From: an uncultured Gammaproteobacteria bacterium
GTDB taxonomy: Bacteria > Patescibacteriota > Microgenomatia > Levybacterales > UBA12049
Assembly (NCBI GenBank): GCA_964635045.1
Contig: CAZWMJ010000004.1
Location: forward strand, 2,205-66,204
Length of the DNA: 64,000 bases
Direction: 5' to 3'
The number at the start of each line of letters is the position of its first letter. The first letter of the stretch is position 1. This document shows, piece by piece, positions 11,250 through 32,049 of the stretch. The notes below the pieces were generated by a model. The model worked only from the letters and a program-made list of their open reading frames with translations, ran no database searches and was not told the origin of the DNA. The translations under genes and the position numbers were made by a program.

Positions 11250-11265
11250 TGAGGAACGAAAATCT

Positions 11266-12719: not shown

Positions 12720-12757
12720 TTTCCCATTACACTACTACAACAACTAATGTAATATAT

Positions 12758-13897: not shown

Positions 13898-13912
13898 GTT
13901 AAGATATAGTTT

Positions 13913-16209: not shown

Positions 16210-16224
16210 AAATTAATGATAACA

Positions 16225-18108
16225 CTAAATGACGACCGGTTTTGCCGATTGAGGTGGTTGAGCTGTAATCGGGGGAGTTTTTAAGGGAGCCGTAGGTGTG
16301 GGCGTGGGGGGAGGAGGGGGTTGGACTGCTTGTTTTTGCATTTCCGCAGGATTGGTGGTGATCATCTCGTGTTCAAAAGGAGCGGCCACCACCCGAATGG
16401 CCACGTGATTTTGTCCGGCGAAAAACAGTCCTTCTCCAATGTTTGCCGAAAGAAGAAGCTCTTTTTCCCCCTCTGTCAGATAAAATGTTTTGGCTACCAG
16501 ATCAACTTCGGAAGTGCCCTGTTTTAACAATAATTGCAGCGAGGAGTTGGACAAAACCGCCTTGCCGTAATCCGTGGAGAGAAAATCTTCCACGTCTTGG
16601 GTGGCGGTGGTTAGCCCCAGATAATACTTGCGCGCCCGCTTGGCGATGCCATAGACAAAAGAGGCGGAATCTTCATATTTCATCATGTACCAAGCCTCGT
16701 CCAGCACCAACAGCCGTTTTTTGAGGGTTTTTCTAATTCTTGTCCAAACAAAATCCAAGATGATATGCATGGCAATAGGACGAAGTTCTTCCTCTAAGGC
16801 CTTAATGGAAAAGACGGTTAGAGGATTTTTGATGCTAAAGTTTGACTGCTGATTAAAAATGCCGGACAGACTGCCTTTGATAAATTTTTCCAAACGCAAA
16901 GCCAGATCTTTGGCGCTGTTATCTTCCATACCCAGCAGCGTTTTGTAAAGATCTTCCATCAGGGGCGGTTCTTTGCTTTGTGTTGCCGGATCCAGAGTGA
17001 TGCCTTTTTGCTGATAAGTTGAAACTAACGCCCTGTCTAAAATTGCATCCTGCCCCGCATCCAGCTCTCCCAAAACAATTCGCAGCAGGCCGTGAAGGGA
17101 GAGAATTTTAATACCAAGCTCATTTTCTCCCTCTTCATAAAGAGCTGACAGATCAAACGGATTTATTTTTATCGGGGCAGAAGGAGTAAAAGCCACATGT
17201 TCTCCTCCCAGCGTTGTGCAAAGAGCCTCATATTCTCCTTCCGGATCCACCACGATAACCTCAGTCCCAAACATTAGTTGTCTGGTAACTTCCAGTTTGA
17301 TAAGATACGATTTTCCGGCACCGGATTTTCCCAAAACCACCTCATTGGCATTTTCCAGTGAGAACCGGTCAAAGATAATCAGGGAATTGTTTTGGGCGTT
17401 GATGCCGTATAATACTCCCTTGTCTTGAGTGAGGGTGGCCGAGGTAAAGGGAAAGGTTGATGCCAAGGACGTGGTATCCATGTTTCTGGTAATAAAAAGT
17501 TTATCCTGCCCCATTGGCAGACTTGACTTAAAGCCTTCTTCTGTTTGAAGAGTGGCTGTTTTGGCCACCAGCAGAAGAGAAGAAAGTGTAATAGTTAATC
17601 TTTTTGACGCTTCTTCCAGCTCCTGTTGTGTTTTGGCAATGATGGTGACATACAAACTAAATTGAAAAAAACGCTCCACTCCTTTGGCCAGTTCGTCTTG
17701 AAGACCCATGGCATCTTCCAGGGCCGCTCTTACTTTTGGATCAATCACCTGATTTTCTTCAACCTGAGAGGATAGGGTGGCTTCCATCTCGGCGATTTTC
17801 CGTCTCAGGTCGGATAAAACATCGGCCGAGGTGGCAGGATAGATAAACATGGAAACATACAGTTCGTGATCAAAATCAATAACGGGAGATAGCCAGTTGG
17901 GAGACACAAATCGGGGATAACCGACCACAAAAAATGTTTTGTAAAATTTCTCTCCTACCCGAATAGAGCGAAAGTCAACCTCGATAGAGGATGGAGCGAT
18001 CACGTCGGTAAGCCCCACCATGCCTTTTTCTATGGGGACTGAGGCCGCGTTTGACGGGGTGGCCTTTTTCTCGGGTTGGTTTTTGTTTTTTTTAGAGCCA
18101 AAAATCAT
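16225..18108 (-). CDS. virB4: type IV secretion ATPase, VirB4/TrbE/PrgJ family
   Basis: 627 aa. Walker A is VLGKSGAGKSYLIK and Walker B is LLVLDEAWYMM. The N-terminal domain is typical of Gram-positive VirB4 homologs, and the tail is Pro-rich. Confidence 0.88.
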   Translation of the reverse strand: MIFGSKKNKNQPEKKATPSNAASVPIEKGMVGLTDVIAPSSIEVDFRSIRVGEKFYKTFFVVGYPRFVSPNWLSPVIDFDHELYVSMFIYPATSADVLSDLRRKIAEMEATLSSQVEENQVIDPKVRAALEDAMGLQDELAKGVERFFQFSLYVTIIAKTQQELEEASKRLTITLSSLLLVAKTATLQTEEGFKSSLPMGQDKLFITRNMDTTSLASTFPFTSATLTQDKGVLYGINAQNNSLIIFDRFSLENANEVVLGKSGAGKSYLIKLEVTRQLMFGTEVIVVDPEGEYEALCTTLGGEHVAFTPSAPIKINPFDLSALYEEGENELGIKILSLHGLLRIVLGELDAGQDAILDRALVSTYQQKGITLDPATQSKEPPLMEDLYKTLLGMEDNSAKDLALRLEKFIKGSLSGIFNQQSNFSIKNPLTVFSIKALEEELRPIAMHIILDFVWTRIRKTLKKRLLVLDEAWYMMKYEDSASFVYGIAKRARKYYLGLTTATQDVEDFLSTDYGKAVLSNSSLQLLLKQGTSEVDLVAKTFYLTEGEKELLLSANIGEGLFFAGQNHVAIRVVAAPFEHEMITTNPAEMQKQAVQPPPPPTPTPTAPLKTPPITAQPPQSAKPVVI

Positions 18109-18746
18109 ACGTTTCCACCGGTTGTAATAATTGACGGTTTTTCATCGGTTTCAATATGGACTTCCTGATAATCGTCGTTATAGAAACTATAAAAAAGCGA
18201 AACCAGCTCTTCTCTTTTTAAGATTTTTGACCGAAGACCAAGTCTGCCGAATTGTTCACTAAGAGAAGTGGCTTTGGTGTGAAGGCCGGTTTTGGCCGAA
18301 GATCTAAAATCGTTCCTGCCAAACGCTCCGCCAACGCCTTTCTCCAAAGAGGTGTAGGGCAAAACAATATAGAATTTTTTATCTAAAACAGCGTTAACGC
18401 TGACCAGATTTTCCACGAAATCTTTATAAAGTGTTCTATAAGATTTTGTCTTTTCGTCTTGGGCTTTTTCCAGTTCCTCATTCAGCAGTTTAACATAAGA
18501 GCCGATGCTGACCCGTTTATTTTTAATCAAAATTTGAATAGGGAACGGCAGGGAGTTTAAAAGCGAGGCGTAAGCATAAATTTTGCTGTTTTGTTCTTCT
18601 CTGGAAAGAAGAGCAAAATTGGCCGCCTGTATTTCGATGATTAAGCAGGCGTTGCCGGAGGAAAAAAAGACCATATCTTCCACGATGTCTTCTATTTCCG
18701 TAAACTTTTGGGTTGATGATTTAGTTTTTTGAATTTTATCTGCCAT
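18105..18746 (-). CDS. T4SS operon protein, possibly a VirB4 N-terminal-domain-like accessory protein
   Basis: 213 aa and soluble. It overlaps the virB4 start by 4 nt. The segment IEDIVEDMVFFSSGNACLIIEIQAANFALLSREEQ resembles the opening of VirB4 N-domains. This is a weak by-eye call. Confidence 0.5.
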   Translation of the reverse strand: MADKIQKTKSSTQKFTEIEDIVEDMVFFSSGNACLIIEIQAANFALLSREEQNSKIYAYASLLNSLPFPIQILIKNKRVSIGSYVKLLNEELEKAQDEKTKSYRTLYKDFVENLVSVNAVLDKKFYIVLPYTSLEKGVGGAFGRNDFRSSAKTGLHTKATSLSEQFGRLGLRSKILKREELVSLFYSFYNDDYQEVHIETDEKPSIITTGGNV

Positions 18747-18749
18747 AAT

Positions 18750-19964
18750 TTAATTAAAAAGCGACCTGCGCAGTTCCTCCCGCTCATCCGTTGAAATAAC
18801 CTCCAGCGGCAACATAGCAACGCCTTCGGCGATTATTTCCACAGCGTCGAATTTATGCTGGCCTTTGGGATCTTCAAAAACCACGGTGTAGGTGCCATTG
18901 CTAAGAGAAGTTGCCGAGGAGAATTGGCCTAAGGCGTTGGTCTTAAAAGCCCTGACCGCATTGCCGTCTTTGTCTTTTACCTCAACTAAAATATTGGGCA
19001 GGACATTATTTCGAGAATCCTTGATGATCCCGCTTATCAAGTTGGGAAAGTCCGCTCCGGCGATGATTGGCGCGCCGACAGTTTTACTTAAGTCTTTGGG
19101 CACGGTTCTGACATTGGGAGTGACTGTTTTGGTGGGGGTAAAACCTGTTTGTTTTTGCAGATTAAATTGTTTCTGCAAAGTCAGCATCTGATCTTCAAGC
19201 GCTTTTTTCTCCGACAAAGTTTGCTGCAACTGCGCTTCCAGCTCCAGCACTTTTTCATGAATACCGGGAGCGGAGACGACATCCTTTTTTTCTTCCTCTT
19301 GTTTTTTGGCGGCCTTAAGCGCTTCTTTAATAAGGTTTGTTTCCTTTTCTAGCTCTTCGCTGGTTTTTTGCTCCATGACATTAGTCGGTTTTTCTTCTTC
19401 AAATTGCGGCTCTGTTTGTTCTGTTGGTAATTGATTCCCTATTTCTTTAATTGTTAATAATCGGGGTTTGTCGTTAGCTGGCTGTTTCGTATTCTTACCG
19501 GGAGAAAAAAGCGAGGAAATGCTGCTAAAAAAAACCGTTTCTTTTTCATCGAGTTTGCCGGCCGGTTTTTTAGCGGTAGCGCTTAAAAAACGTTCCAGCT
19601 TTTCTTTGCTTTCGGGAGCGGTTGTTTTTGCTTTGGGATGAGATTTTTTGGGTGGAGGAGGAAAAGACAGGCTCACTCCCGCTTTTTGAAAAAGATATTG
19701 ATTGGGGCTAAACATGGCTCTTAAGAAATAAGAAACCATGGTATCCAATGGTCGTCCGTCAATGGGAACGAAAGATAGGGAAAAACCAAAGCCGGCGCAA
19801 AAAAACGAGATAAAAATTTTTATAAAAAATGGCAAAGGAGAGATAAAAAACAAGTAGGCCAAAAATGCGCCGCCGGCCAAATAAGCAAACTGCTTAATGG
19901 TCATATCTCCGATCAGCTTAAACTGAAAGCCGGTGATGTCTTGCGGAATGGGATGATTTTCCAT
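18750..19964 (-). CDS. PrgI/VirB3-like membrane protein fused to a coiled-coil and a CarboxypepD_reg-like beta-sandwich
   Basis: 404 aa. The N-terminus PIPQDITGFQFKLIGDMTIKQFAYLAGGAFLAYLFF plus two TM helices matches the PrgI family pattern. The C-terminus ISGIIKDSRNNVLPNILVEVKDKDGNAVRAFKTNALGQFS...GTYTVVFEDP is a typical carboxypeptidase-regulatory-like fold motif. Confidence 0.65.
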   Translation of the reverse strand: MENHPIPQDITGFQFKLIGDMTIKQFAYLAGGAFLAYLFFISPLPFFIKIFISFFCAGFGFSLSFVPIDGRPLDTMVSYFLRAMFSPNQYLFQKAGVSLSFPPPPKKSHPKAKTTAPESKEKLERFLSATAKKPAGKLDEKETVFFSSISSLFSPGKNTKQPANDKPRLLTIKEIGNQLPTEQTEPQFEEEKPTNVMEQKTSEELEKETNLIKEALKAAKKQEEEKKDVVSAPGIHEKVLELEAQLQQTLSEKKALEDQMLTLQKQFNLQKQTGFTPTKTVTPNVRTVPKDLSKTVGAPIIAGADFPNLISGIIKDSRNNVLPNILVEVKDKDGNAVRAFKTNALGQFSSATSLSNGTYTVVFEDPKGQHKFDAVEIIAEGVAMLPLEVISTDEREELRRSLFN

Positions 19965-20002: not shown

Positions 20003-20083
20003 TTATCAAAATAGGTCAAAATCGCGTCTGACGCGATCAAAACCAAGTCCGACTTGGTCAAAACCAAGCTGAGCGTGGTAAAA
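20003..20083. repeat. array of three short stem-loops separated by TCAAAA (copy 1 of an intergenic repeat)
   Basis: The three stem-loops are CGCG-TCTGA-CGCG, CCAAG-TCCGA-CTTGG and CCAAG-CTGAG-CGTGG, each followed by (G/A)TCAAAA or TAAAA. About 45 nt are identical to 21070..21130. Confidence 0.75.
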
Positions 20084-20102
20084 CGGGGTTAAACTAATAG
20101 TA

Positions 20103-20768
20103 CTAAAACGGTGGTTTTGCCTCAAGAAGAAGTTTATGAGCTAGAGATACGAAGTAATGCTCAAGCGCTCTTTTTTGTAACGGTACAAGCATTTCTGGAA
20201 AGTTTTGCAGCGTTTTTACTTCAAGAAATAGGTGCGCGAGGTAAAAGTTTGAAAGTCCCAAGTCTTTTTTCTTCGCGTCTTGCAAGAGCCTGTTAAAGGT
20301 AAGCTGATTTTGTTTTTTAAGGATAAAATAGAGATCAATGAAGTCCTTGGCCTCGGTTCTGCCGAATATGGCGGTAATTTTATTGCTTCCAATATTCTCA
20401 ACGGAATCAACGCGAATCTTGCCGAAGGTTTTTATGCGGCCAAAGTGCACAGGCTGTTCTCTTACAAGGTCTATTTTTAGTTCTTCACTTTTGTTAATAA
20501 GGAAAAATTTGTGGTATCCCTCTGTTGCCAGACGGTGATCAAGTTTTGTTTTTGTCTTCTCTGCAACGGATGTTAGCATTTGTTTTACAGGAGCAATCTC
20601 GATATCCTCAAAAGTAAAGAGGTCAAGGTCAACGCTTTTTCTGTGGTGAAAATAAAACCCGGCAAGGGCGGTACCACCAGTAAGAAAGTACGTTTGGCCA
20701 GCCGGCCATTCGAAGAAGTTTTGGAGAACCTCCTCTTGAAGCCTAGTGAGTGGATTTTTCTTTTTCAT
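20103..20768 (-). CDS. AbiEii/AbiGii-type nucleotidyltransferase toxin (type IV TA family)
   Basis: 221 aa. The motif FLTGGTALAGFYFHHRKSVDLDLFT matches the AbiEii (DUF1814) nucleotidyltransferase core. It is paralogous to 40219..40851. Confidence 0.7.
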   Translation of the reverse strand: MKKKNPLTRLQEEVLQNFFEWPAGQTYFLTGGTALAGFYFHHRKSVDLDLFTFEDIEIAPVKQMLTSVAEKTKTKLDHRLATEGYHKFFLINKSEELKIDLVREQPVHFGRIKTFGKIRVDSVENIGSNKITAIFGRTEAKDFIDLYFILKKQNQLTFNRLLQDAKKKDLGLSNFYLAHLFLEVKTLQNFPEMLVPLQKRALEHYFVSLAHKLLLEAKPPF

Positions 20769-21018
20769 ACTTGCTCCAGAGATTAAGCGTATACTGCCAG
20801 ATTTTTTTAATCTTTGGGCGTAGGTGAACAGAGGAGAATAATTCGCGAAGCTGTGGGAGCGTTATATACTTCCAGAGCGTATCGAAAGGAAGATTCTCAA
20901 GCATTCTCCCAATAGCCCAAGCCTTCTCCTTCCTTGTTCCTCTTTGAAGTTTCGCCAGAAGTTCCTTTTCGCTAAAATTGTAGTCCCAAAACGCCTGTTT
21001 TAACAACATATGTTTCAT
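20743..21018 (-). CDS. small partner protein of the AbiEii-like toxin (putative antitoxin)
   Basis: 91 aa. It overlaps the toxin start by 26 nt and shares the FWDYNFS motif with 40803..41102 (FWDIDFS). Confidence 0.55.
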   Translation of the reverse strand: MKHMLLKQAFWDYNFSEKELLAKLQRGTRKEKAWAIGRMLENLPFDTLWKYITLPQLRELFSSVHLRPKIKKIWQYTLNLWSKYEKEKSTH

Positions 21019-21069: not shown

Positions 21070-21130
21070 TTAGAGAAAATATCAAAATAGGTCAAAATCG
21101 CGTCTGACGCGGCCAAAACCAAGCTGAGCT
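21070..21130. repeat. stem-loop array, copy 2 (two units)
   Basis: The sequence ATCAAAATAGGTCAAAATCGCGTCTGACGCG..CAAAACCAAGCTGAGCTTGGTCAAAA repeats the 20003..20083 element, so the TA pair is flanked on both sides. Confidence 0.75.
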
Positions 21131-21163
21131 TGGTCAAAATTAGGCAAAAGAAACAATTATAAT

Positions 21164-24058
21164 CTAAGGAGCAGAGGAGACAATTTCCACCCCTTGTTTT
21201 TTCGCTTCTTCCAGGGCTCTTCCATCTGTGAGGTAGACAGCATTTTGACTAGTAAAATCAACTTTATCAAGATCGGTTATTCTAGGGGCAAGATGCGAAG
21301 CGCTAGATCTGTCAATCGCGGGATAGAGGGTTGCTGTCGGAAAATATAATACTTTGTCTGGTTTTCCTTCCCCCACCATTGATAATCTATCTCTTTTTAG
21401 CAAGAGAGCTCCTGATACTTGATTAATCATTGCCTCCCTATCAACATAGGTGAAACTACCATCGTCACGATATACCCCTTGACCTTTAATATTCCATCCC
21501 CAGGCCATAATCATGCCAAGCTTTCCTCCGTTCTGTCTTGAGAGATCGTTGACAATATCAATATTTTGTAGCGCTTCATTTACCCCTCCCTTATTTGTAG
21601 ACTGACCCGCCAAACCCCAGCTATTGGCAGAGGTCCAAAGCATAAGGGGTTTTTCATAGGTTTTTGATAACCAGCCCAAGGTTCGCACCATGCCGGACAG
21701 GAGATTAATATCCTGTTTGGTTAATGGCCAATTAGAAGGATTGTCATGCAAGTGGGTATCGGCAGAAAAAATGAATGTATCTGGTGTTTCTCTAAAAATC
21801 CGTTCAACATCGGGGAAAAATGGGGTATCACGTTGTATGTGAAAAGTCATCATGGTTCGCAAGCTGGGATTTAACTCCTTCCATAAATTTGCACTCCAGG
21901 CTGCATAGTCGGCAATAACTCCCGATGTAAACTCTCCGCGTTGATATGGGGAGGCTTCTGCAAACTTTACACCGTACCGTTGTTCAAATGCGGCCATTGC
22001 ATGGGGGGAGAAGTCAGAACCCATTGGTTCGTCAGCCAAATTGATAGCAATAACATGAGGATATTTTTTAATAATAGTTTCGTTAACCCAACGATAGTAA
22101 TCGCCAATGTCTTTCTTGTACTCTAGTGAATATGGGCTGGTTGTTTCTCCGCTTTTCCATTGGTTCATCAGATTGCCATTTACGTCTCTCCGTAATTCTC
22201 CAGGATGTTTGTCATTCCATTCCTGACCCATTTGTATTTGATAGCCAATTGGTAAAACAACATTTAAACCAATTTCAGCGCTAGCATCGAGCGCATTAAC
22301 AATTGCTTGATGTATCTTTTCAGCATTCTCTTTATTGGGAGTATTTTTTTGCAGAGCAAACCAGACGGCAGGAGCAAGACCTGGTTCACTGCCATTTGGA
22401 TCTGTATTACCCGGATTATTATGTCCAATGTAAATAACATTTGCTCCTAAATCTTTCATTCGACGCATGTCTTTAGCCATCTCTTCCTTTGAGGTTCCGG
22501 GTATTGCGGTGTAGGCCCAGCCCACTTTATTTTCGAAGGGAATCAATCTCTCCCTGCCTTCTGCTTTCATTTCTTCCATGACATACTCCAGAAGCGGTCC
22601 AATTTGGGCTGTCATCCAGGAAGCTTGTCCGCTTTTTTCGTCAAGATTGATATAGCCCCATTTTTCGGGCTCACCCTCATTCTTTAATTCAAATCCTTTG
22701 TCTCTTAACTGAAAAACAATTACCGCCTGGGCGCCATATTTTCTGGCCTCCTTTATAATTTGAACGGTTCTTTGGCCCCTATCTTTGGGATCATTTGACC
22801 CGCCTTCGGAAATAATAAAAGGAACGCTGTCGCCAAATTCTTTTTTAAGAGCCTCAACCTGTTTTTTTATCCGAGAGGGATCATGAAAGACGTGGAGGGA
22901 AAAAACAAACTGACTAAGATCAACACCCTGATTTCTTAATTGTTTAGCAAGTTCTGCTGTCCTCCCATTTATCTTCTCATCTTCCCAATAGTCGAGGAGA
23001 CTTCCTATGATTAAATTTACATTTACTCCTTTTCTTTTTAAGATGTCGGACGTCTGTGAAATAAACTTGGCAAAACTTTCCAGAGTTCTATCTTCCTGTA
23101 TTTCTTCCTCCCAGAATTTAGGTAAATCCGGCTCGTTACCCAGTTCTAAAGCAAAATTTTTGTAATTTCCCATTAAAGATAAAATCCGATCAAGTCTTTT
23201 AGCGGCTTCCTCATCCGGCAATAATCTGGTGGGATTGTAGGCGATGATAATTTTTAAGTTTAGCTGCTTGGCTTTATTGATGGTTTTTAAGGCCTCGGAT
23301 TTTCGTTGGAAATCTTTTTCATTGGCTTGATCAAGGGAAAGTCTGACAATACCCGCTCCTATTTGGGGGATTTTTTCAACAAGCTGCGGGTATTCGGAGT
23401 CAAAACCAAGCCAGGAAAGAGCTTGTTTACCCTCAATCCAGAGGACCTCTTTTAGCTGGATATCGCCGAATGGAACTTCGAAATCTCCGTTTTCTGTTCT
23501 GACTAAAAATCTGCCATTGCCGGCCGGTCCTAAAACCTCTAAATCTTTATTGGTAATTTCAACTTCTGCCGGCGTATTGGCGCCGGGAAGAAAAAATGTC
23601 GGTTTTTCCACGGCAATAGTGGCCTGTGACAGCCGTGTTGGGTTTGTTTCCTTTTCTTCATGGATAGTTTGGGCGCTCAAGATAGCAGGGGTTAACAGCC
23701 CCGCCGCTACTTTTGGCAATACATCTTGAGCTGCCGTGCCTGCCATTAAGGCCGCCATGCCCGCCGCCGCCAACCGCTTAGCGTTCCTTTGTTTCCAGGA
23801 AAGCATTTTGGTTGGTTTTTTTCCGATGACCCTGACAAGTTCATCTGCCGGAACATACTTTGGAGTTTTTTGAGCGGTTTGTGATTCTCTAAAAGCCGCC
23901 AATGTCGTAGTTAGCGTGTCAGGATTAACACGGGAAAAATCAGGAGCGGTGGGAAATTCTCTGAAAGCTGCTAATGTTGTATTTAGCGTGTTGGGGTTAA
24001 CACGAGAAAAATCGGGGGTAGGAGGCGAACCAGAAATTATTTCTGTCATTATTATCAA
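21164..24058 (-). CDS. bitopic protein with two TIM-barrel glycoside-hydrolase-like domains (clan GH-A signatures)
   Basis: 964 aa. The N-terminus holds a tandem 20-aa motif (PDFSRVNPxTLxTTLAAFRE, two copies) followed by one TM helix. Domain 1 has ALELGNEPD and IISEGGS. Domain 2 has AINLADEPMG. NEP/DEP acid-base motifs are typical of GH5/GH42-like enzymes. Confidence 0.6.
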   Translation of the reverse strand: MIIMTEIISGSPPTPDFSRVNPNTLNTTLAAFREFPTAPDFSRVNPDTLTTTLAAFRESQTAQKTPKYVPADELVRVIGKKPTKMLSWKQRNAKRLAAAGMAALMAGTAAQDVLPKVAAGLLTPAILSAQTIHEEKETNPTRLSQATIAVEKPTFFLPGANTPAEVEITNKDLEVLGPAGNGRFLVRTENGDFEVPFGDIQLKEVLWIEGKQALSWLGFDSEYPQLVEKIPQIGAGIVRLSLDQANEKDFQRKSEALKTINKAKQLNLKIIIAYNPTRLLPDEEAAKRLDRILSLMGNYKNFALELGNEPDLPKFWEEEIQEDRTLESFAKFISQTSDILKRKGVNVNLIIGSLLDYWEDEKINGRTAELAKQLRNQGVDLSQFVFSLHVFHDPSRIKKQVEALKKEFGDSVPFIISEGGSNDPKDRGQRTVQIIKEARKYGAQAVIVFQLRDKGFELKNEGEPEKWGYINLDEKSGQASWMTAQIGPLLEYVMEEMKAEGRERLIPFENKVGWAYTAIPGTSKEEMAKDMRRMKDLGANVIYIGHNNPGNTDPNGSEPGLAPAVWFALQKNTPNKENAEKIHQAIVNALDASAEIGLNVVLPIGYQIQMGQEWNDKHPGELRRDVNGNLMNQWKSGETTSPYSLEYKKDIGDYYRWVNETIIKKYPHVIAINLADEPMGSDFSPHAMAAFEQRYGVKFAEASPYQRGEFTSGVIADYAAWSANLWKELNPSLRTMMTFHIQRDTPFFPDVERIFRETPDTFIFSADTHLHDNPSNWPLTKQDINLLSGMVRTLGWLSKTYEKPLMLWTSANSWGLAGQSTNKGGVNEALQNIDIVNDLSRQNGGKLGMIMAWGWNIKGQGVYRDDGSFTYVDREAMINQVSGALLLKRDRLSMVGEGKPDKVLYFPTATLYPAIDRSSASHLAPRITDLDKVDFTSQNAVYLTDGRALEEAKKQGVEIVSSAP

Positions 24059-24145
24059 TTATATGTCTTTTTATTTTTTAAGCAAACGCGATACAACAGG
24101 CGTCAGTTACCGCTTTTAAGGCTGTAAGGTTTCTATCAAAGTCAC

Positions 24146-26527
24146 TCAGCGACCTTCTTTTCTTGATAAATTTCGATCCAGTTTGGGTGAACCCAGGGCA
24201 ATATAGGGACCTTTCACACTGTCGGAATTTTCAGCTGGCTGCCTTTTATCCGGATCTACTTTGGCTCCCCGGTCAATTGCCTCGTAACCTTCTTCTTTCA
24301 AAGCTTGAACAATTTCCTGCTGCAGCAGTCTAGCTAAAGCTTCGCTGGAAACCCGATGCTTTGCATCTGCCATGGCATACTCATTGGGAAAGTACGTTTC
24401 AGCTCCCACTGCATTGGGATTATCCAGGCCGTTAAAATGGAGCGACACGTAAGCCACTTTTCGATCTTCTCTCTCATCAGGAATTCGCAGGGCTTCGGCC
24501 ATGGCCAAGAGCAGAGCTTTTCTTTTTTGCAGTCTTTCAATGTTGGAGACCAAACCGTCTCCGTCAATATCTTCATCATTGGGGTTTTCGGGGCGTAACA
24601 CGACAATATCATATCTGCCTTTGCTTTCCCTTAATAATTCCTGTGCTGTTAGTCGGGCTAGCTCCCACGTCATATCTTTTTCCGCCAGCTTTTCCCCTTC
24701 GACACTGGTAGTCCCTGCTCCTATGTCTGCGGCCCCATGCCCGGGATCCAGGCCGATAACTGCGTGAGAGTCTCCGTAATGCTCTGCTATGGCTTTGGCA
24801 TGAGCCCTGGCCAGACCGTATAAAATCTTATTTCTTCTGTCCTGGGGAAATTGGGCCAGCTCTTTTAAGAATAAGCTTTCGGTTAAGACCGCATCGTGGC
24901 TTCCTCTCAACATACCGATCCATGGAGCCACTTCCCCGTAACTTAACTCCCGGGGGTAATAGATCTTTGATTCGGGCAATTTGGGTATTTCCTCTTCTTC
25001 TCTGTCTTGGGTCATTTTGAGAAGCTGCCTTCGTACCTCCTCCCTGATCGGTTTCCAATAATTTTCTCTGGGATTTGATGATCCGGGATTACCGCCTCGG
25101 ATCTTGGTAATGGCTACTCCTTCTATGCCGGCGCCGACCACAAAATTGCGATTGTTAATAACTAACCCGGCCATTTCCGGAGTGCCCAGCTCCCAACCGC
25201 CCGAAAACTGTTGTAAAATACCCTCTCCTGTCATTTTGACAATTTCTTCCAAAGCAGGCGAGAGCATACCCTCCAGATCAAAATCCGGATTGAGTCTGCC
25301 TTGTTTGATTTTCGCAAGCACTATATCTCGCAAGGCTAGCGCCAGACGACCTTTATTAAAAGGGTTTTTCTGAGATTCTTCTACCAACCTTTTGAAAAAT
25401 GCCACTAAAACTTCCTGCTGGCGGCCGGCCCTGACATAATCACTGCCTCCCTGGTGCGTACGGCTGCGCGAATATTTTAAGGCAGTGGCTCCGTTTAGTT
25501 TCTGTCTGCCTTTGGCCAGATAAAAAGGGTCAATGCCGGCCCCTTCTTTGGTGGGATATTTTTTATCATCAATTGTGCTTTCAACATCAACTTCCACATA
25601 CCCCACTGTTTTATCAATCATATCCTCCAAAACATCGAAACGCGATACGCTGGCGAGATCTATGGACAAACCGGTGGCATTTTCCAAGACTTCTTTAACC
25701 AGATTAATGCCACCCAGTTGATGAGCGAAATTAATGCGCGACCAGGCCTCGTTTTTACCCTCCCGCCACACTTCCGGGGACTGCAAATCGCGTGGAAGAG
25801 AAAGAAAAAAAACAGTGTTGGTGGGCAAATGATAAGAAAAAACCATCATGGAATCTGTCATGGTGCCTTCCTTGCCAATCCCCAACAACACTCCATTGAT
25901 TCTACTTTCATTAAGTTCCTTATCAATTCTTTTTAAATAATCCGGGTCTTCTTTGACTCTTTTATCTCTAATTTGTCTTACTTCCGATATGATCCTGGGC
26001 AAAATCATTTCCCGCAAAATTTCCCTCTTGGTTGGCTCAACTTTGGCCGCTTCCAGGAGCACTCCCCCTACAGGCGCAGCTTCTGCCTCAAGATGTTTGA
26101 TGATTTGAGGTATTTCCGGAGTGGGTAAAACTTCCCCCGCCTCCGCGGCCGGCACTCCCATCATCATGGGCTCGGCAGTTCTAACAGGAGCAGGAGCAGG
26201 CGCCAAAAGCGGCCCCATCAATCTCTGGAAGACTTGATCTGCTGCTAATCCGGCTCCCACACCGGCCGCTATTGCCAGAAGCTTTCTTCTGGAAATACCT
26301 TGTTTTCTGACCTGCGGAGACAGGGGAAGTTCTTCTTTGGTTGGTTTTCGAGCGGCTGGCTTTTCTCGAACAGCGACTAAGGTTGTCCTTAGCGTGTCAG
26401 GATTAACACGGGAAAAATCAGGATCGGCTGGGGGTTCTCTGAAAGCTGCTAATGTTGTAGTTAGCGTGTCAGGATTAACACGGGAAAAATCAGGAGTAGA
26501 AGGTGGAGCGGAAATTGTTTCTGCCAT
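24146..26527 (-). CDS. bitopic LytR-CpsA-Psr (LCP) domain + N-acetylmuramoyl-L-alanine amidase (amidase_3) fusion protein
   Basis: 793 aa with the same tandem N-terminal motif and a TM helix. LCP blocks are MTDSMMVFSY...LSLPRDL, GGINLVKEVLENATGLSID and LNGATALKYSRSR...RAGRQQEV. Amidase_3 blocks are GLDPGHGAADIGA, VSLHFNG and GAETYF. Confidence 0.75.
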   Translation of the reverse strand: MAETISAPPSTPDFSRVNPDTLTTTLAAFREPPADPDFSRVNPDTLRTTLVAVREKPAARKPTKEELPLSPQVRKQGISRRKLLAIAAGVGAGLAADQVFQRLMGPLLAPAPAPVRTAEPMMMGVPAAEAGEVLPTPEIPQIIKHLEAEAAPVGGVLLEAAKVEPTKREILREMILPRIISEVRQIRDKRVKEDPDYLKRIDKELNESRINGVLLGIGKEGTMTDSMMVFSYHLPTNTVFFLSLPRDLQSPEVWREGKNEAWSRINFAHQLGGINLVKEVLENATGLSIDLASVSRFDVLEDMIDKTVGYVEVDVESTIDDKKYPTKEGAGIDPFYLAKGRQKLNGATALKYSRSRTHQGGSDYVRAGRQQEVLVAFFKRLVEESQKNPFNKGRLALALRDIVLAKIKQGRLNPDFDLEGMLSPALEEIVKMTGEGILQQFSGGWELGTPEMAGLVINNRNFVVGAGIEGVAITKIRGGNPGSSNPRENYWKPIREEVRRQLLKMTQDREEEEIPKLPESKIYYPRELSYGEVAPWIGMLRGSHDAVLTESLFLKELAQFPQDRRNKILYGLARAHAKAIAEHYGDSHAVIGLDPGHGAADIGAGTTSVEGEKLAEKDMTWELARLTAQELLRESKGRYDIVVLRPENPNDEDIDGDGLVSNIERLQKRKALLLAMAEALRIPDEREDRKVAYVSLHFNGLDNPNAVGAETYFPNEYAMADAKHRVSSEALARLLQQEIVQALKEEGYEAIDRGAKVDPDKRQPAENSDSVKGPYIALGSPKLDRNLSRKEGR

Positions 26528-26529
26528 TA

Positions 26530-29500
26530 TTATTGCGCGGTAGATTTAGCTCTTTCAAGAAGTTCTACGCTTTTTATAATAGCTAGGAGCTCGCCCTGTC
26601 TGCTCCCAATATATTCGTCTAATCGGTGGGGAAATCCTGCCTGCGATCCACTAGCAAACATCACATATATTTGTCTGGCTCGAACTTTGGGTTCTTGAAT
26701 ACCTGCTTCTGCAAAGAATGTTTCCAAAGCTTCAACCTTAGTCCTATCACCGCTAAACATTATACGACGATTGGGGTCTGATACTTCTTCGGCTTCCCTA
26801 GCTTGTTGAATAGTTCTCAATGAATTACTTGATAGTTCCAAGATGCTTCTTAAGGTTCCTTTGTCAACGGTTGCTAACGACGGGTCACCGTAATAGGCTG
26901 TTTTTAGTTCTTCTCCCAGACGGTTTATTTCAACATTTGTTAATCCGACCTCATGTCTAACAGAAGAAAGCAGACTGGCCGGAATTTCTGCAGTGGGCGT
27001 AGCGCGCGGGGCTGGTGTTTCAGTTGTCGCCGGCGCCGGTGCAGCCGGAGCGGTTGGAGCTGATGGTTCTGGGAGTGGGGGAGCTTGAGTTTTCTCATTT
27101 AATATTCCATTAACAATTTCTACTTCGGCCGCTTCTGCCAGTTTTCCAAAATAGTCTGCTCTTTTTTCTGCAACATTATTGACAGCCCTCAAATGTGTCA
27201 CCTCGGCTTGGTTTCTTGCCAAAAGAGCATCCAAAAACAGCGTGTCTGATACTGATTTTCCTTCTTTAAGTTGAGTAATAAGTTTAGCAAAAGTTGTGTT
27301 TTTTTCTTTCAATGTCTTCCGCAATTTATCTATCTGTCCTCTGTCTCTAGAATCTATTCCAGCTTGACTATCAAAGAGCCCAGTAAACGCATCGAATGCT
27401 TGGTCGCGTTTATTGTAATCTCTGTCGTTTTTCTTGCTCTGCAGATAGGTGTCATAGGCAGTGCAGGCTTTTTGAAACGCATTCTGTAAAGGGGTATTGT
27501 TAAAAACTCTTTGAGCTAACAACTGTTGGTGATACACTAAGTCCCAAGTGGCGAAATAGTCAGCTGTATTATAGGGCAGACGAGAGGCTATAACACTCTT
27601 ATTCTCTTGCTCTTGTTGAATAGTCGTCCTTCTTGCTTCTTCGGGATGATTTAGTTGTTCAGCTAATGTACTTTCTAGAACGTCAGCAGTATCTGCGGCC
27701 CCTCTCATATAGGTTTGTTTGAGTTGAGCGATAAGCGGTTCTGCCGCCCTAAGTTCTTCTTCAAATGGAGTCGGTGGTTTTTCCCGGCGGCCAAAACTCG
27801 GTTTTGGAACTTGAGCTCTTAGGCTTTCCCAACGCTCTCCCGCCGTTTTTCTTGCTTGAGCCAGTCTTTCCCCCATACCTGCAAATGGCCGTCTTGGTGA
27901 TGGTGGAGAAGATGGTGTAGCCGGAGGCGCTTCGGCTGCTCCCGGTGCAACAGGAACTGCGGCTTCCAGCGCTTCGGTTGGTATTGCTACTCCCACTCTT
28001 TGAAGAGGTTCTAAATAGATGATTCTACTTATTTCCAATCCCGCTCTTTGTGCGGCGCCAAGTAATAATTCCAATTCTTTCTGTGCCCAACTATTAGTTG
28101 CCCTTTGATAAATAATCATTTTGCGATTTTTTTCAGCAAAATCCCGGGATAAATCTAAAATTTGCGCCTCGGGGATGCTTTCTTCGGATATTCTTTTAAG
28201 GAGAGATTGAAAGTTAACAACCCTAAGGTTAGCGTCCGAGGAAAGTCTATTAGTTTCATCTTTGTCTATACCGAGAACATCATCGAGCGTTGTGAAGAAG
28301 GCGGCGTTGGCTTGATTATATCTAGCCTCATTAGTAACGTCAGCGATTGAACCCGTTCTATACGCCCTGTCGGCATCTTTTAGTTCTTGAAACACTGTTT
28401 GCAATTTTTCTGACTCCGGAAATATTTGAGCCGGGGTGATTCCTTCAAGACCAATAATCGCACCAAGAATAGTGCCCGCTTTAAACCGGAAACCCAGAAG
28501 CATCCCTCTTTCTTCTTCCTGAAGTATAGTTTCTATCGTCTCATCTTCTCCAAGGCCTAAAGTCTTCCCTATCTGCATTTGTAATTCATCGGTTCTTTTC
28601 TCTGTCTCTAATGCTGTTTCCATAGGTTTTTCTCTGTATGCGTCACGGAGTTGGCCAAATAATTCTTGAGCGCGCGTTGTTTGCTCGGCAGTTAATGCGG
28701 CCGCTTCAGCCGTCACAGGAACTGCTTCAGCCGCTCCAGCAGCCGGTTCAGCCGGTGGGGGAGTTGCTGGCGCAACTGCCGCTTCAGTTGCTGGGGGTGG
28801 TTCTGCTGCTGCCACTGTACTTTCAACAGTTTCAGCTGCTGGTTCAGTTACTGTTGATACTGGAGCAGTTGCAGCCGGGGTTGCCGGTTGTGGGGGCCCA
28901 GACGAGGGTCTCCTCATGGCCTCTTCCATGTCCCGATTTAACCTTTCAAGGTCTCCTCCTGCGGTTGTTTGTATTTGTTCTGTCCTCTCTCGTAATCTGT
29001 CAAGCGCTCCGGCCGTATCTGCGGGAGGTACTACCCCGGCCGCGGGCGCGGCTGGAGGTTCTCCACTAGTCGCGGGCGGAATTGCTGGCCTAGCAGATGG
29101 GAGAGGTGGAAGGGTTAATTCTGCCTGTTCTATCCCCTCCGGCTGTCTGGGAGTTGATTCTTCTTCGGTGGGAATGCCTGCTTCTGCTCTTGTCCCCGGA
29201 TAATCTTTCCAGTAGTTAAGTTCTTCAGCTGTTTTTGGTTCTACTACAGGTGGTTGACCAACTGCCTCAGGCTCAATTGTAAATGGAATTGTCGTTGGTA
29301 TAACCCCCGTTGCAGCTTTATAAACATCCTCATCTGGTAGTTTTATCTCTCCCGCCGGTTTGCCGCTTTCCCCCCAGAGATCAATTTCCGGTTGAGGTTT
29401 TCGAGTAATCCCCCCCAGTCTATCTGCCGCCTGTTCGGCAGTCATTGGCCCGGTGGGTGGTTGCGGTAATTCCTCGGCAGAGGGTATTGGTTGGCCTTGT

Positions 29501-32049
29501 TCGTTTACTAATCCGCTGGGGTGTTCAGCTTGTTGAAGACGCAAAGCCGCCTCAAGTCTTTGCTCTATTTCCGCCGGCGATATTTGTGGAGCGGGACGAT
29601 GGGTTTTATCCGGTTCTCTTAAGAAATAATCGTCTAGCCATTTAGTGATAAGCTCTTCTCCAGCAGACCTTGGTACTAGGGGCTCTTCCTTGCCGAACGC
29701 TCTTTTTATTATGGTATTGTAATCTTTTTCTGAAAGAATACTCTGGAGTTTTTTCAGCAGAGGATTATCAGGAGTCACTTTAGCCGACACAAGAGAATTA
29801 GCGATGAGGTCATGGCTTAACAATGTTCGATCGTTTACATACTGTTCGGGATTGTCTAGGCTTCTTATATAATCTGCTTCGTGGTCTCTGACAAAGTCTT
29901 TGATATCAACTTTTTCACCGGTTTTTTCTTGCCATTGTGCGAAGGCCCGTAAATTATTCTCCAAATAATCTCGTGCCTGTTGCATCTCGGCTTCTCTTCT
30001 AAGTTTGGCATTTTCCATCGCGTGTGCCGAAACCACAGCATCTAGATTTTCTTTGGGGATTTCTGTCGGTCGCGGTTCATGAACTATTCTTTCTCTCAGC
30101 CCCGGCCCGCCGGGAGGAATTATCAGTTCTTCCGGAGGAGTGGTCGGTGGAGTAATCCCCCCAAGTCTATCTGCCGCCTGTTCGGCAGTCATTGGCCCGG
30201 TGGGTTCTGCTGCTGGCTCTCCAACTATGGTGGAGGGGATTTCCTGACCTTGTTCGGTTACTAATCCGCTTGGATGTTCAGCTTTCTGTTTTTCCAAAGC
30301 GTCTTTTAATCGTTGATCTATTTCTTCCGGCGGTATTCCGGAAAAAGGCGGGTGTACTTTTAGTGGAGGAGCCGGAGAAAGAGTCTCATCTAATAGTTTT
30401 TTCCCTTCCGCCGGTTTACCACTCTCCCCCCAGAGATCAATGGTGGGTTCTTGTCCGGTTGGTGGCGTCGGCGCAGGCGTAGTTGTCTTAACCGGCGTAA
30501 TAGTTTCTGCCTCTTGTTCTATTCCTTCCATATCCCTGCGAATAAATGGTTCTTTAGTAGTGGCAGCAGGCTCTCTTGGACCAAAATCTTTCCAATAACC
30601 AATCTGTGGAGGAGCAGTTCCTGCCTCCTCTTTTATTCCCTCCGGCTGTCTGGGAGTTGGTTTTTCTCCGGCAGAAGTATCAGCGTCCGCTCTCCACCCC
30701 GGAGAATCTTTCCAATAACCAATCTCTGGTTTTTGTCCGGGCGGTGGTGTTACTACTGTTGGTTCCGTTGGCGGCTTGACTACTGTTGGTGTTCTTCCTC
30801 CCCCCGTAGGTTCCTGTGTCCCTCCCTCAATGAATCTTTTTCTGGTAACCTGGGGGTTTCTCTCCAGTTTGATGGGGGTTTTCACCCCTCTCTCAAACCG
30901 CTCTTCTCCTTTGAGGGCCAGAAGAAACAGGTGGAGGCTTAAGGCATCTATCTCTCCTTTCATCTGTTCTTGAAGTTTTTGTTTGCCAATATCCTGGTTA
31001 AATCCCTGGTAGTTATCAATCATAGTTTCAAGACCGGGTTTGCTGAAATCTATCTCTTTTAAGATGTCTGCCATATCTAAAGCTACCGGGGTGAGAGTTG
31101 ACAGATCTGCTGTTGATGCTCCAGCTGGTGCCGTATCCACATTTCTTTTATGCTGAAGAGCTTCTTTAATGTTGCGGTAGAATCTGCCTCTGACTTCCGC
31201 ATAGGTTAGTTTGGTGGTAAATCTATCTTCCGCTGATTGAGGCTTGGCCAGTCTTTCTCTAAGAGACTGGATCATATTTCTATAGGAGGGAGGTTTACCT
31301 TCCTGTTTGAGAGTATTGGCAATATCCGTAATGACAATACCTACTCCCGGATATCGTTTCTCCGGAAAGGCAGTCATCAGGGTGGGGTCTTCCACATCTG
31401 CCAGCCTATCTTCAATTAGTCTAAAGGCCAGGAAATCCTGTCTGGCTTCCCTTAACATCTCTCTCGGTTTGCCTTCATCATCCAGATAGTAGGCCACATA
31501 AGGTCCTTCTGCCTGATCTCTCACTCCCAGTTCTCCCACCTGGGTAAGTACGGTATTAGGCCTGTTCTCCGCAAATTGAGTACGCAGATCCTCAATCATT
31601 CTTTGTTGTTCTTCCTGCCGCATGGTAGTAAAGTGAGCTTCAATTGTGCGGGCCAGTTCTCTCAGATCAGGATGATTTTCCCCCATCAGAATCTGTTTCA
31701 CCCAATCATCACCGGAATATGCTTCTGAATCCCTAACTCTCTTATCTATCTCTCCCAGCTTTCTCTTTCGATACTGATCATCATTCTCCCCCGTATTCTT
31801 GGGAAGATGAGAGGCAATCTTATCATCGGCAAACTTATCTCCCAGATAGGCATCTGCCCTTTTAAATTCTGCAGACTTTTTATATGCCTCAAGGGGAATA
31901 CCTAAATCTCTTCTCTCATCATGAATTTTTAAAGAAGCCGGTCTTCCCTGTTGGGCAGGAACTGTGTCTGGTTGGGGAGAGGTTTGGCTTCCCTCTCCTG
32001 AGGGGGCGGGGGGAGGGGAAGTTGGTTGTTCTGGTGTCGGATCTGCCAT
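26530..32049 (-). CDS. giant protein 1 (1839 aa): shared N-module + repeat-rich Pro/Ala/Glu body + helical C-region
   Basis: One uninterrupted ORF. The N-terminal region of about 420 aa is identical to giant protein 2. There is no signal peptide and no TM helix. It contains internal repeated linear motifs (see findings). Its stop is 2 nt from the start of 24146..26527. Confidence 0.8.
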   Translation of the reverse strand: MADPTPEQPTSPPPAPSGEGSQTSPQPDTVPAQQGRPASLKIHDERRDLGIPLEAYKKSAEFKRADAYLGDKFADDKIASHLPKNTGENDDQYRKRKLGEIDKRVRDSEAYSGDDWVKQILMGENHPDLRELARTIEAHFTTMRQEEQQRMIEDLRTQFAENRPNTVLTQVGELGVRDQAEGPYVAYYLDDEGKPREMLREARQDFLAFRLIEDRLADVEDPTLMTAFPEKRYPGVGIVITDIANTLKQEGKPPSYRNMIQSLRERLAKPQSAEDRFTTKLTYAEVRGRFYRNIKEALQHKRNVDTAPAGASTADLSTLTPVALDMADILKEIDFSKPGLETMIDNYQGFNQDIGKQKLQEQMKGEIDALSLHLFLLALKGEERFERGVKTPIKLERNPQVTRKRFIEGGTQEPTGGGRTPTVVKPPTEPTVVTPPPGQKPEIGYWKDSPGWRADADTSAGEKPTPRQPEGIKEEAGTAPPQIGYWKDFGPREPAATTKEPFIRRDMEGIEQEAETITPVKTTTPAPTPPTGQEPTIDLWGESGKPAEGKKLLDETLSPAPPLKVHPPFSGIPPEEIDQRLKDALEKQKAEHPSGLVTEQGQEIPSTIVGEPAAEPTGPMTAEQAADRLGGITPPTTPPEELIIPPGGPGLRERIVHEPRPTEIPKENLDAVVSAHAMENAKLRREAEMQQARDYLENNLRAFAQWQEKTGEKVDIKDFVRDHEADYIRSLDNPEQYVNDRTLLSHDLIANSLVSAKVTPDNPLLKKLQSILSEKDYNTIIKRAFGKEEPLVPRSAGEELITKWLDDYFLREPDKTHRPAPQISPAEIEQRLEAALRLQQAEHPSGLVNEQGQPIPSAEELPQPPTGPMTAEQAADRLGGITRKPQPEIDLWGESGKPAGEIKLPDEDVYKAATGVIPTTIPFTIEPEAVGQPPVVEPKTAEELNYWKDYPGTRAEAGIPTEEESTPRQPEGIEQAELTLPPLPSARPAIPPATSGEPPAAPAAGVVPPADTAGALDRLRERTEQIQTTAGGDLERLNRDMEEAMRRPSSGPPQPATPAATAPVSTVTEPAAETVESTVAAAEPPPATEAAVAPATPPPAEPAAGAAEAVPVTAEAAALTAEQTTRAQELFGQLRDAYREKPMETALETEKRTDELQMQIGKTLGLGEDETIETILQEEERGMLLGFRFKAGTILGAIIGLEGITPAQIFPESEKLQTVFQELKDADRAYRTGSIADVTNEARYNQANAAFFTTLDDVLGIDKDETNRLSSDANLRVVNFQSLLKRISEESIPEAQILDLSRDFAEKNRKMIIYQRATNSWAQKELELLLGAAQRAGLEISRIIYLEPLQRVGVAIPTEALEAAVPVAPGAAEAPPATPSSPPSPRRPFAGMGERLAQARKTAGERWESLRAQVPKPSFGRREKPPTPFEEELRAAEPLIAQLKQTYMRGAADTADVLESTLAEQLNHPEEARRTTIQQEQENKSVIASRLPYNTADYFATWDLVYHQQLLAQRVFNNTPLQNAFQKACTAYDTYLQSKKNDRDYNKRDQAFDAFTGLFDSQAGIDSRDRGQIDKLRKTLKEKNTTFAKLITQLKEGKSVSDTLFLDALLARNQAEVTHLRAVNNVAEKRADYFGKLAEAAEVEIVNGILNEKTQAPPLPEPSAPTAPAAPAPATTETPAPRATPTAEIPASLLSSVRHEVGLTNVEINRLGEELKTAYYGDPSLATVDKGTLRSILELSSNSLRTIQQAREAEEVSDPNRRIMFSGDRTKVEALETFFAEAGIQEPKVRARQIYVMFASGSQAGFPHRLDEYIGSRQGELLAIIKSVELLERAKSTAQ
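30786..32040. repeat. 1255-bp direct repeat, copy 1 (5' coding module of giant gene 1)
   Basis: The offset to copy 2 is exactly 7667 nt. Protein sequences and even off-frame shadow ORFs are identical (31237..31419 = 38904..39086; 31307..31489 = 38974..39156), which implies DNA identity wherever it was checked. Confidence 0.9.

Follow-up and report, generated by a model that had tools for sequence, protein, structure and literature searches.

The locus and its tags

The locus discussed here lies in a 64-kb stretch of DNA from a Microgenomates-group bacterium of the candidate phyla radiation (CPR); "the window" denotes this whole stretch, 64,000 nucleotides of contig CAZWMJ010000004.1. It contains two adjoining genes for putative exported wall enzymes whose products open with the same tandemly doubled 20-residue motif, here called the tag. 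A fuzzy six-frame search of the window locates four copies of PDFSRVNP[DN]TL.TTLAAFRE, two at the N-terminus of a 793-amino-acid (aa) protein with LCP and Amidase_3 domains (the LCP-amidase) and two at that of the adjoining 961-aa protein (the second enzyme). The genes and their common 5' parts are arranged as follows.

24146-26527, minus strand: LCP-amidase gene, 793 aa
21164-24049, minus strand: second enzyme gene, 961 aa from ATG 24049 (the full open reading frame [ORF] is 21164-24058, 964 aa)
26435-26494 and 26363-26422, minus strand: tag copies of the LCP-amidase gene, 72-nt period
23957-24016 and 23885-23944, minus strand: tag copies of the second enzyme gene
26345-26533, minus strand: shared 5' module of the LCP-amidase gene, start-codon context and ~55 codons
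23867-24055, minus strand: shared 5' module of the second enzyme gene, carrying both of its tag copies

The tags are real and not chance matches. A 35-mer occurs exactly at 23911, 26389, and 26461, in three of the four copies, with 0 occurrences expected in 100 shuffles. A first-pass annotation, made from the letters alone, had described both the paired copies and the identical 35-mer, and both descriptions are confirmed. The annotation had also proposed looking for more PDFSRVNP proteins; a hidden Markov model (HMM) built from the four copies covers the 64-kb window and detects no fifth copy in any of its six frames, the next-best match having an E value of 0.76. The tandem period corresponds to 24 residues. 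The 5' modules of both enzyme genes are colinear over 189 nt with 81% identity, and the similarity sets in ~9 nt before the ATG. Because of this colinearity, ATG 24049 is the most likely start of the second ORF, which there reads MTEIISGSPPTPDFS... in parallel to the LCP-amidase start MAETISAPPSTPDFS..., and the previously listed length of 964 aa is best shortened to 961 aa.

The four copies show a mosaic identity. Over the first 30 nt of the 60-nt copies, both LCP-amidase copies and copy 2 of the second enzyme are the same, while copy 1 of the second enzyme is off at five positions. Over the last 30 nt, copy 1 of the LCP-amidase is nearest to copy 1 of the second enzyme, with one difference, compared to four differences from copy 2. 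Since the two halves give incongruent relationships, they point to short-tract gene conversion, in line with the earlier view that the copies are being homogenized. Copy 1 of the LCP-amidase and copy 2 of the second enzyme encode the same 20 aa with four synonymous and no nonsynonymous codon differences; copies 1 and 2 of the second enzyme differ by eight synonymous and two nonsynonymous codons. As the codon differences are mostly silent, the peptide is under selection and the DNA repeat is translated. The mosaic and the predominance of synonymous differences together fit gene conversion plus selection on the peptide.

Beyond the window, a degenerate DNA pattern for PDFSRVNP[DN]TL gave 0 matches in genome and metagenome contig collections, which do not include the source genome. 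A tag profile run against 5.8 billion proteins returned nothing, a weak negative that is uninformative because the known positive P0001 was missed as well. The exact tag was recovered by full-length search in the two window proteins only. The LCP-amidase is present in the 5.8-billion-protein collection at 100% identity, although an exact query of the contig index with it gave no entry. The second protein is absent from the protein collection, where its nearest match is 68% identical across 44% of the query; public annotation of the metagenome-assembled genome may have overlooked or divided the gene.

Domains of the two enzymes

The LCP-amidase consists of the two tags, a linker, SRRKLL with a 14-residue hydrophobic run, an LCP domain, an accessory region, and an Amidase_3 domain.

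25385-25858, minus strand: LCP (LytR_cpsA_psr) domain, residues 224-381, PF03816 E=1.7e-25
24272-24757, minus strand: Amidase_3 domain, residues 591-752, PF01520 E=6e-14

By profile, the protein qualifies as a member of the LCP family, scoring 90.4 bits with PF03816 (cut-off, 24.6) and 78.7 bits with TIGR00350 (cut-off, 62.3). PDB matches of its LCP domain are TagV, TagT, and MsrR, the first two with an E value of 7e-13. PF01520 scores 52.9 bits (cut-off, 27) and covers profile positions 1 to 120 of 174. The motifs DPGHG, an E, SLHFN, and GAETYF, seen by inspection, would supply the zinc ligands (H, E, H) and the catalytic glutamate of an Amidase_3 enzyme, and the domain shows a weak PDB match to LytH. 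These scores uphold the first-pass assignment of both domains. The pairing itself had been called unusual, which does not hold within the clade: the two domains are fused in five proteins (the window protein, L013/P0002, P0003, P0004, and L014) and are encoded by separate adjacent genes with the same tag in the Roizmanbacteria chromosome L018, which makes the pairing a clade trait.

The second enzyme comprises two tags, a linker, KR with a 15-residue hydrophobic run, a small β subdomain, a GH-A-like barrel (GH, glycoside hydrolase), and a further domain, B. No Pfam or NCBIfam family matches the protein, and a PDB search with its whole length gives nothing meaningful.

22547-23632, minus strand: domain A, small β subdomain and predicted (β/α)8 barrel of the clan GH-A type
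21167-22561, minus strand: domain B, small unannotated exported family, alternating β/α, invariant D-E-P

An AlphaFold2 (AF2) model of domain A, built with five homologues, has a pLDDT of 79.7 and a pTM of 0.82. Foldseek ranks GH5 mannanases and cellulases together with GH30 first (E ~1e-8, TM-score ~0.5). An invariant glutamate in ELGNEP follows strand 4, and another in IISEGG ends strand 7; these residues, E167 and E276, are invariant in five sequences, the first following strand 160-164 and the second ending strand 272-276. The barrel fold and both catalytic glutamates in the GH-A layout support a glycosidase of the clan GH-A type. Domain A is nevertheless without a CAZy or Pfam GH profile (the window protein has no match, and the homologue P0005 reaches 19 bits on PF00150 with a cut-off of 23.5), and the model thus resembles a GH-A glycosidase that fits no defined family. 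Only five sequences of this domain are known, and a metagenome scan for relatives found none.

The domain B family (P0018-P0119) occurs across bacteria and counts 102 clusters at E≤1e-3 (~100 clusters at 50% identity). Its invariant residues are D-E-P, SADTHxHD, WxxxNxWG, and WxxN, and no Pfam model exists for it. Relatives in other bacteria often open with classical Tat (twin-arginine translocation) signals. Some family members carry extra modules such as PA14 or LGFP-like repeats. The homologues give sub-threshold GH42 and GHL6 hints only, the profile finds a GH2 TIM barrel in the PDB at E=0.12, the single-sequence AF2 model (pLDDT 39.5) is too poor for a fold search, and no invariant glutamate lies on the seventh strand. 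A glycosidase label for domain B is not justified on this basis. The description of the protein as a double glycoside hydrolase therefore stands for the first domain, through fold and motifs, and falls for the second; the family check proposed with it, carried out with Pfam and NCBIfam profiles, gave no match. A duplicated domain as the source of a "double GH" is rejected, since hhalign shows no relation between domains A and B. Both domains represent uncharacterized families of putative exported enzymes.

Hydrophobic segment and orientation

Each protein carries a short hydrophobic segment between the tags and the catalytic domains.

26240-26293, minus strand: export/anchor segment of the LCP-amidase, SRRKLL then LLAIAAGVGAGLAA, residues 79-96
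23729-23785, minus strand: export/anchor segment of the second protein, NAKR then LAAAGMAALMAGTAA, residues 89-107

These segments are weak, with best 19-residue Kyte-Doolittle means (KD19) of 1.38 in the LCP-amidase and 1.33 in the second protein, and their uncharged runs of 14 and 15 residues are rich in Ala and Gly. What had been read as one transmembrane (TM) helix looks more like a signal anchor or a Tat-like signal, cleaved or retained. Six K/R residues occupy the 20 positions before the run of the LCP-amidase and one follows it, and the whole N-terminal regions of both enzymes are net positive (+4 and +6). With this strong positive-inside bias the N-terminus should stay inside, and the tag would be cytoplasmic, as the first-pass annotation had placed it; relatives' tags on proteins without a hydrophobic segment agree with this placement. 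LCP and amidase domains, for their part, need to be outside the cell to act.

In the LCP-amidase clade, a twin arginine precedes the segment in 5/5 proteins, P0002-P0005 among them (SRRKLL, SRRRLL, TRRRFL, GRRKAL, and SRRLVL). The GH clade shows KR, PR, RR, or HR at this position, and RR is not conserved. The LCP-amidase, with SRRKLL, shows the pattern Z-R-R-x-hydrophobic-hydrophobic followed by a weak h-region; the second protein, with AKRLAA, does not. The n-regions of the window enzymes comprise 78 to 92 residues, and Pfam and NCBIfam scans give no match to a Tat-signal model on the window proteins.

Tags in related lineages

Relatives were found in Levyibacteriota, Daviesbacteria, and Roizmanbacteria. 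Each homologue has its own N-terminal motif ahead of the membrane segment, mostly doubled and often common to adjacent genes.

P0004: LPF[NG]IDP..LVEKARRY, twice
P0015: I[ND]P..LAEKAARYR, twice
P0016 and the LCP proteins of L006 and L007: L.D.P.L..ILRGVEI, twice
P0017: SLLADSRLASIIRG-like, two copies
P0003 and P0005: AEFDITKPYCNLPVAEAMEFYDWLE, same motif in both

A universal tag consensus is rejected, as the registers differ by clade ([IV]-[DN]-P-x-x-L, L-x-D-P-R-L, and RVLSIAERLK). The tags occur at N-termini only and never inside proteins.

Sharing of a tag extends to neighbors of quite different kinds. The locus L009 shares its gene order with the window (GH gene, small gene, AbiEii); a PP2C phosphatase (PF00481, 49.5 bits) precedes its GH gene and carries the tag of the latter at its N-terminus (IIDPMVLAEKAAKWR compared to IIDPGVLAEKAARYR). 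In L010, a soluble 565-aa paralogue of the giant protein encoded upstream of the window enzymes (giant 1, described below) opens with the tag of the downstream GH-LCP enzyme. In L018, a complete Roizmanbacteria chromosome, a 402-aa Amidase_3 protein and a 465-aa LCP protein both open with RVLSIAERLK. Tag sharing was assessed by Smith-Waterman alignment of the first 110 aa against 500 shuffles, with p values of ~2e-6 for the PP2C and GH proteins of L009, 1.5e-5 for the 565-aa and GH-LCP proteins of L010, 6e-7 for the amidase and LCP proteins of L018, 6e-5 in L020, and 1.5e-5 in L012. The N-terminal similarity of six control pairs from the same loci is not significant. Since the amidase and LCP proteins are separate with the same tag in L018 and fused in the window, tag sharing parallels gene fusion. 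The PP2C protein and the 565-, 641-, and 857-aa carriers are without a hydrophobic segment (maximum KD19 below 1.0), which argues that the tag is not part of an export signal. The PP2C protein and the 565-aa protein carry single-copy tags.

Behind the constant N-terminal module, domains are shuffled: GH-A is combined with domain B, with an unrelated C-terminal domain, with LCP, or with LCP and a degenerate amidase. P0005 (L007, 3406-6273) is a fusion of GH-A, LCP, and an amidase-like domain whose zinc ligands are gone (DPGSGG and SIRFSD), probably a pseudo-enzyme domain at the C-terminus. P0002, P0015, and P0017 feature an additional conserved cytoplasmic helical domain of ~85 aa between the tags and the membrane segment (e.g., L013, 9647-10020), with the motif VW..I...LP...[DN]P...L...R ... 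RD[LI][ND]...L[VI].[FL][FY]L.R.G; both window proteins are without it. Genes of Ser/Thr phospho-signaling accompany the tagged loci of relatives, namely, a kinase-like gene at 4080-5198 of L010 (Pkinase, 21 bits, sub-threshold; motifs VIKVAR, DWK..N, and IDWG) and PP2C genes at 821-1801 of L009 and 1-1509 of L008; the 64-kb window contains neither kind. L013, L015, and L020 show Microgenomates-type gene content and were deposited as "uncultured Gammaproteobacteria bacterium," probably a labeling artifact.

Giant genes and a possible operon

Two very large genes lie upstream of the enzyme genes.

26530-32049, minus strand: giant gene 1, 1839 aa
33201-39722, minus strand: giant gene 2, 2173 aa

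Giant 1 matches no family in Pfam or NCBIfam and no PDB entry, and it shows no clear TM segment. The stop codon of its gene, TAA at 26530-26532, lies 2 nt from the LCP-amidase ATG, exactly as first described. Giant gene 1, the LCP-amidase gene, and the second enzyme gene are co-oriented on the minus strand, and the 96-nt gap between the two enzyme genes contains no terminator-like site on that strand. Counts from the promoter and terminator scans are no higher than expected from shuffles, and an operon of these three genes is for this reason plausible but unproven; the single transcription unit proposed earlier agrees with the 2-nt and 96-nt gaps and goes no further than that.

The link between giants and enzymes recurs outside the window. 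Giant 1 matches ORF1 of L010 (E=2e-34) and the N-terminus of the 1745-aa protein of L018, and giant 2 matches the 1170-aa protein of L018 (E=2e-82). In L018, giants of 1745 aa (divergent strand) and 1411 aa (same strand) precede the amidase and LCP genes. Giant-protein homologues are thus conserved neighbors of tagged enzymes in other lineages, standing upstream of them in L010 and L018, and the association drawn in the first-pass annotation is borne out. A 637-aa protein encoded upstream in L001 was rejected as a giant 1 homologue; it gives a single weak local match (E=0.001) and belongs to another family, common to L006 and L007.

Giants 1 and 2 are 97.5% identical over their first 435 aa and then diverge fully. 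The shared 5' stretch spans 30745-32049 and 38418-39722, with 300 nt identical at 30787-31086 and 38454-38753. This 5' module, recently converted or duplicated on genes 7.7 kb apart, repeats the pattern of the enzyme tags at a larger scale.

The tag as a proposed docking peptide

The favored reading takes the doubled motif as a cytoplasmic docking (address) peptide that co-assembles giant proteins and wall enzymes, and belief and doubt weigh about equally for it. It builds on the observed repeats and their mosaic identity, on tag sharing among relatives, on the domains of the enzymes, and on the carriers that are soluble. The tag pair would sit at the extreme N-terminus, followed by a basic stretch and then by the short, weakly hydrophobic export or anchor segment, with the catalytic domains outside the membrane and the tags left in the cytoplasm. 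Each tag is probably a short amphipathic helix, N-capped by [DN]-P, and would bind one common cytoplasmic site, or other tags, so that the LCP-amidase and the glycosidase-like enzyme meet at one location. Relatives would by this logic gather the PP2C phosphatase, separate amidase and LCP proteins, and paralogues of the giant proteins. The most likely hub is the co-encoded, conserved family of giant helical proteins, which is favored because its members are conserved neighbors with repeated modules and because paralogues carry tags. The tag sequence would drift between lineages, and gene conversion together with purifying selection would hold the copies of one genome alike. A common intracellular partner of the two enzymes, as suggested in the first-pass annotation, appears reasonable.

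Several points weigh against this reading. The tag is absent inside the giant proteins, the proposed binders. Neighboring enzymes in L006 and L007 carry two different tags (the LCP proteins of 507 and 515 aa compared to P0003/P0005), and there is therefore no single tag per genome. Cleavage by signal peptidase would strip the tag from the mature enzymes and limit it to the time before or during export. The related loci are mostly short metagenomic contigs, and the search for carriers in the source genome covers 64 kb. The tag partner is putative, and we infer how the enzymes lie in the membrane, that the tags fold into helices and bind, which proteins act as the hub, and that the genes form an operon.

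A more far-reaching version, in which fast-evolving tags dock wall enzymes, Ser/Thr phospho-signaling enzymes, and giant paralogues on giant scaffolds by a dockerin-like cytoplasmic addressing, is tentative and on balance doubtful. If true, it would describe a lineage-specific machine for envelope building or host contact. A shared cytoplasmic docking motif on wall enzymes is already known in kind; what sets this case apart is that the tag is doubled in tandem, evolves in concert, has spread to soluble enzymes and giant paralogues, and is tied to CPR giant proteins. The shared tags suggest a docking-tag system that has not been described before, and it would show with unusual clarity how a short linear motif can evolve in concert on unrelated proteins. 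CPR bacteria (Patescibacteria) make up a large share of bacterial diversity, their envelope building and host attachment are barely known, and their giant proteins are functionally blank. A common tag on wall enzymes, a phosphatase, and giant paralogues offers a testable handle, as the tag can be used as bait for the hub and scanning for tags can reveal the machine's members in any genome, with the LCP-amidase fusion compared to tag sharing as an internal control.

Comparison with known systems

In its proposed function, the tag is closest to the GpsB-binding motifs and to the logic of dockerin and scaffoldin, and it is a member of neither, as the defining sequence features are absent. GpsB-binding motifs lie in cytoplasmic mini-domains of Firmicute wall enzymes; as proposed for the tag, they are short helical motifs of N-terminal cytoplasmic tails through which one cytosolic adaptor gathers several single-pass wall enzymes, and they vary between species (PMC6335420). 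The GpsB motif, SRxxR(R/K), is single and close to the membrane (PMC6335420), whereas the tag measures ~20 aa, is tandemly doubled at a distance of 30 to 130 residues from the membrane segment, is hypervariable between lineages and homogenized within a genome, and also occurs on soluble proteins. The GpsB-binding motif is not found in the tag, and the fifth residue of SRRKL, which precedes the hydrophobic run, is Leu.

In the dockerin-cohesin assembly of cellulosomes, a module of ~22 residues, duplicated in tandem on enzymes of which many are glycoside hydrolases, docks its carriers on a very large repetitive scaffold with species-specific pairing (PMC5429695), which recalls the tag pair and the giant protein. 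Dockerins, however, are C-terminal, extracellular, Ca-binding, and EF-hand-like, with recognizable cohesin domains as partners, while the tags are N-terminal and predicted to be cytoplasmic. No Ca-binding motif is found in the tag, and no Pfam dockerin model matches.

By its domains, the LCP-amidase resembles TagT/U/V and MsrR and, weakly, LytH, all N-in, membrane-tethered enzymes acting on peptidoglycan, and it would be tethered in like manner. It differs from these in the fusion of both activities (or their adjacent same-tag genes in Roizmanbacteria), the long tagged cytoplasmic region, and the Tat-like segment. Tat signal peptides with dedicated chaperones such as TorD and DmsD are N-terminal peptides recognized before export. 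The likeness to them consists of the twin arginine and the weak Ala/Gly-rich hydrophobic region that follows; unlike Tat signals, the enzymes show an n-region of 80 to 180 residues with repeated tags, the tags also occur on signal-less proteins, and RR is not conserved in the GH clade. The conserved C-terminal peptide of FtsZ, DIPAFLR, is another short acidic-Pro-hydrophobic-Leu peptide that acts as a docking handle common to many division proteins (PMC5125937, PMC4117426). The tag of the 641-aa protein of L012, RDIPAFLDGLL, recalls it as a lead only, and the window tag VNPDTL does not fit D-I-P-x-F-L-[RK].

Alternative explanations

The tags might instead be part of a very long n-region of a Tat (or Sec) signal, read by an export chaperone or targeting factor before translocation and then removed or left behind, in which case they would govern export and not the placement of the mature enzyme. 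This explanation is unlikely. It draws on SRRKLL and the RR kept throughout the LCP-amidase clade, on the Ala/Gly-rich runs of 14 to 15 residues with KD19 below 1.5, on the many domain B homologues with classical Tat signals elsewhere, and on the report of the Tat components TatA and TatC in Microgenomatia (PMC9166423). The same tags on a soluble phosphatase and giant-like proteins without a hydrophobic segment speak against it, as do the GH clade without conserved RR and the missing match to a Tat-signal model. N-regions of 80 to 180 residues are, moreover, far beyond the known range.

Homotypic helical association, in which proteins with the same tag oligomerize directly without a hub and gene conversion keeps the surfaces identical, is improbable as well. 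Tandem duplication and homogenization within a genome would suit a self-recognizing module, tag sharing stands in for the covalent amidase-LCP fusion in L018, and no receptor was found. On the other side, the helical part would span only ~12 residues, and carriers with a single copy exist.

A role of the tags as recognition signals for the adjacent type IV secretion system (T4SS)-like machine, marking enzymes, phosphatase, and giants as substrates or assembly factors, has very little probability. This machine is encoded beside the replication genes.

13913-19964, minus strand: T4SS-like cluster beside dnaN and dnaA, with a PrgI-like gene (18750-19964), a 213-aa gene, a VirB4/TraG P-loop gene (16225-18108), a 604-aa protein gene (sub-threshold SLT_3 match), and a 161-aa gene
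11266-13897: dnaA (11266-12618) and dnaN (12758-13897)

With profile scores of 98 bits (PF19044) and 35.4 bits (PF12666), the cluster has the predicted make-up of a patescibacterial T4SS, namely, VirB4 and a PrgI/VirB3-like gene near dnaA/dnaN, an arrangement already known from Patescibacteria (PMC12102498). Both the window and Levyibacteriota L014 have the LCP-amidase beside the PrgI/VirB4 cluster, close to dnaA. Patescibacterial T4SSs are without relaxase and may have other roles, and their VirB1-like hydrolases are rarely linked to virB4, which would leave a VirB1-like role for other glycosidases (PMC12102498). The adjacency is not general, though, as no T4SS gene lies within 10 kb of the closest orthologue (L013, 76% identical) or of the L018 locus, and the T4SS, one of the tag partners suggested in the first-pass annotation, is not supported as a general one. 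The tagged enzymes also have an export segment of their own, and the tag HMM finds no tag-like sequence in the T4SS genes of the window. Known T4SS signals are mostly C-terminal.

Least credible of all is a shared 5' end that is a functionless by-product of recent segmental duplication and conversion, to which the region is prone, or a Thr-rich phosphorylation site for the kinase and PP2C of related loci, which could appeal to the recent duplications in the window (the 97.5%-identical starts of the giants and the 520-, 689-, and 693-aa paralogues), to the TTT in the window tag, and to the PP2C (L008 and L009) and kinase-like (L010) neighbors, and which is opposed by the excess of synonymous over nonsynonymous changes, by the independent recurrence of the doubled-tag architecture with unrelated sequences in many lineages, and by the fact that most other tags are without Ser or Thr, e.g., IIDPGVLAEKAARYR.

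Other features of the window

The region 7097-19964 represents the chromosomal origin (jag/khpB, yidC, dnaA, and dnaN), with the same gene order in L014. A further T4SS-related protein of 509 aa, encoded at 49101-50630 on the minus strand, has a C-terminal T4SS pilin domain (PF18895, 32 bits) and is far bigger than the small VirB2-like pilins that occur in tandem at 906-2467 of L014.

An AbiEii toxin gene (221 aa) and an overlapping upstream 91-aa gene occupy 20103-21018. This cassette is bracketed by 60-nt direct repeats of 88% identity (20004-20084 and 21080-21139) with small palindromes spaced by GTCAAAA, and it looks like an insertion that separates the second enzyme gene from the PrgI-like gene; a similar cassette lies in the same place in L009. 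A second AbiEii gene is found at 40219-40851.

The 693-, 520-, and 689-aa proteins (9095-11176, 41134-42696, and 42712-44781, all on the minus strand) are paralogues with a common N-terminal module of ~280 aa, 74% and 34 to 39% identical, and different C-termini. The 693-aa protein matches the HopA1 effector family with 23.9 bits, just over the cut-off, and the three proteins may form a polymorphic effector or toxin family.

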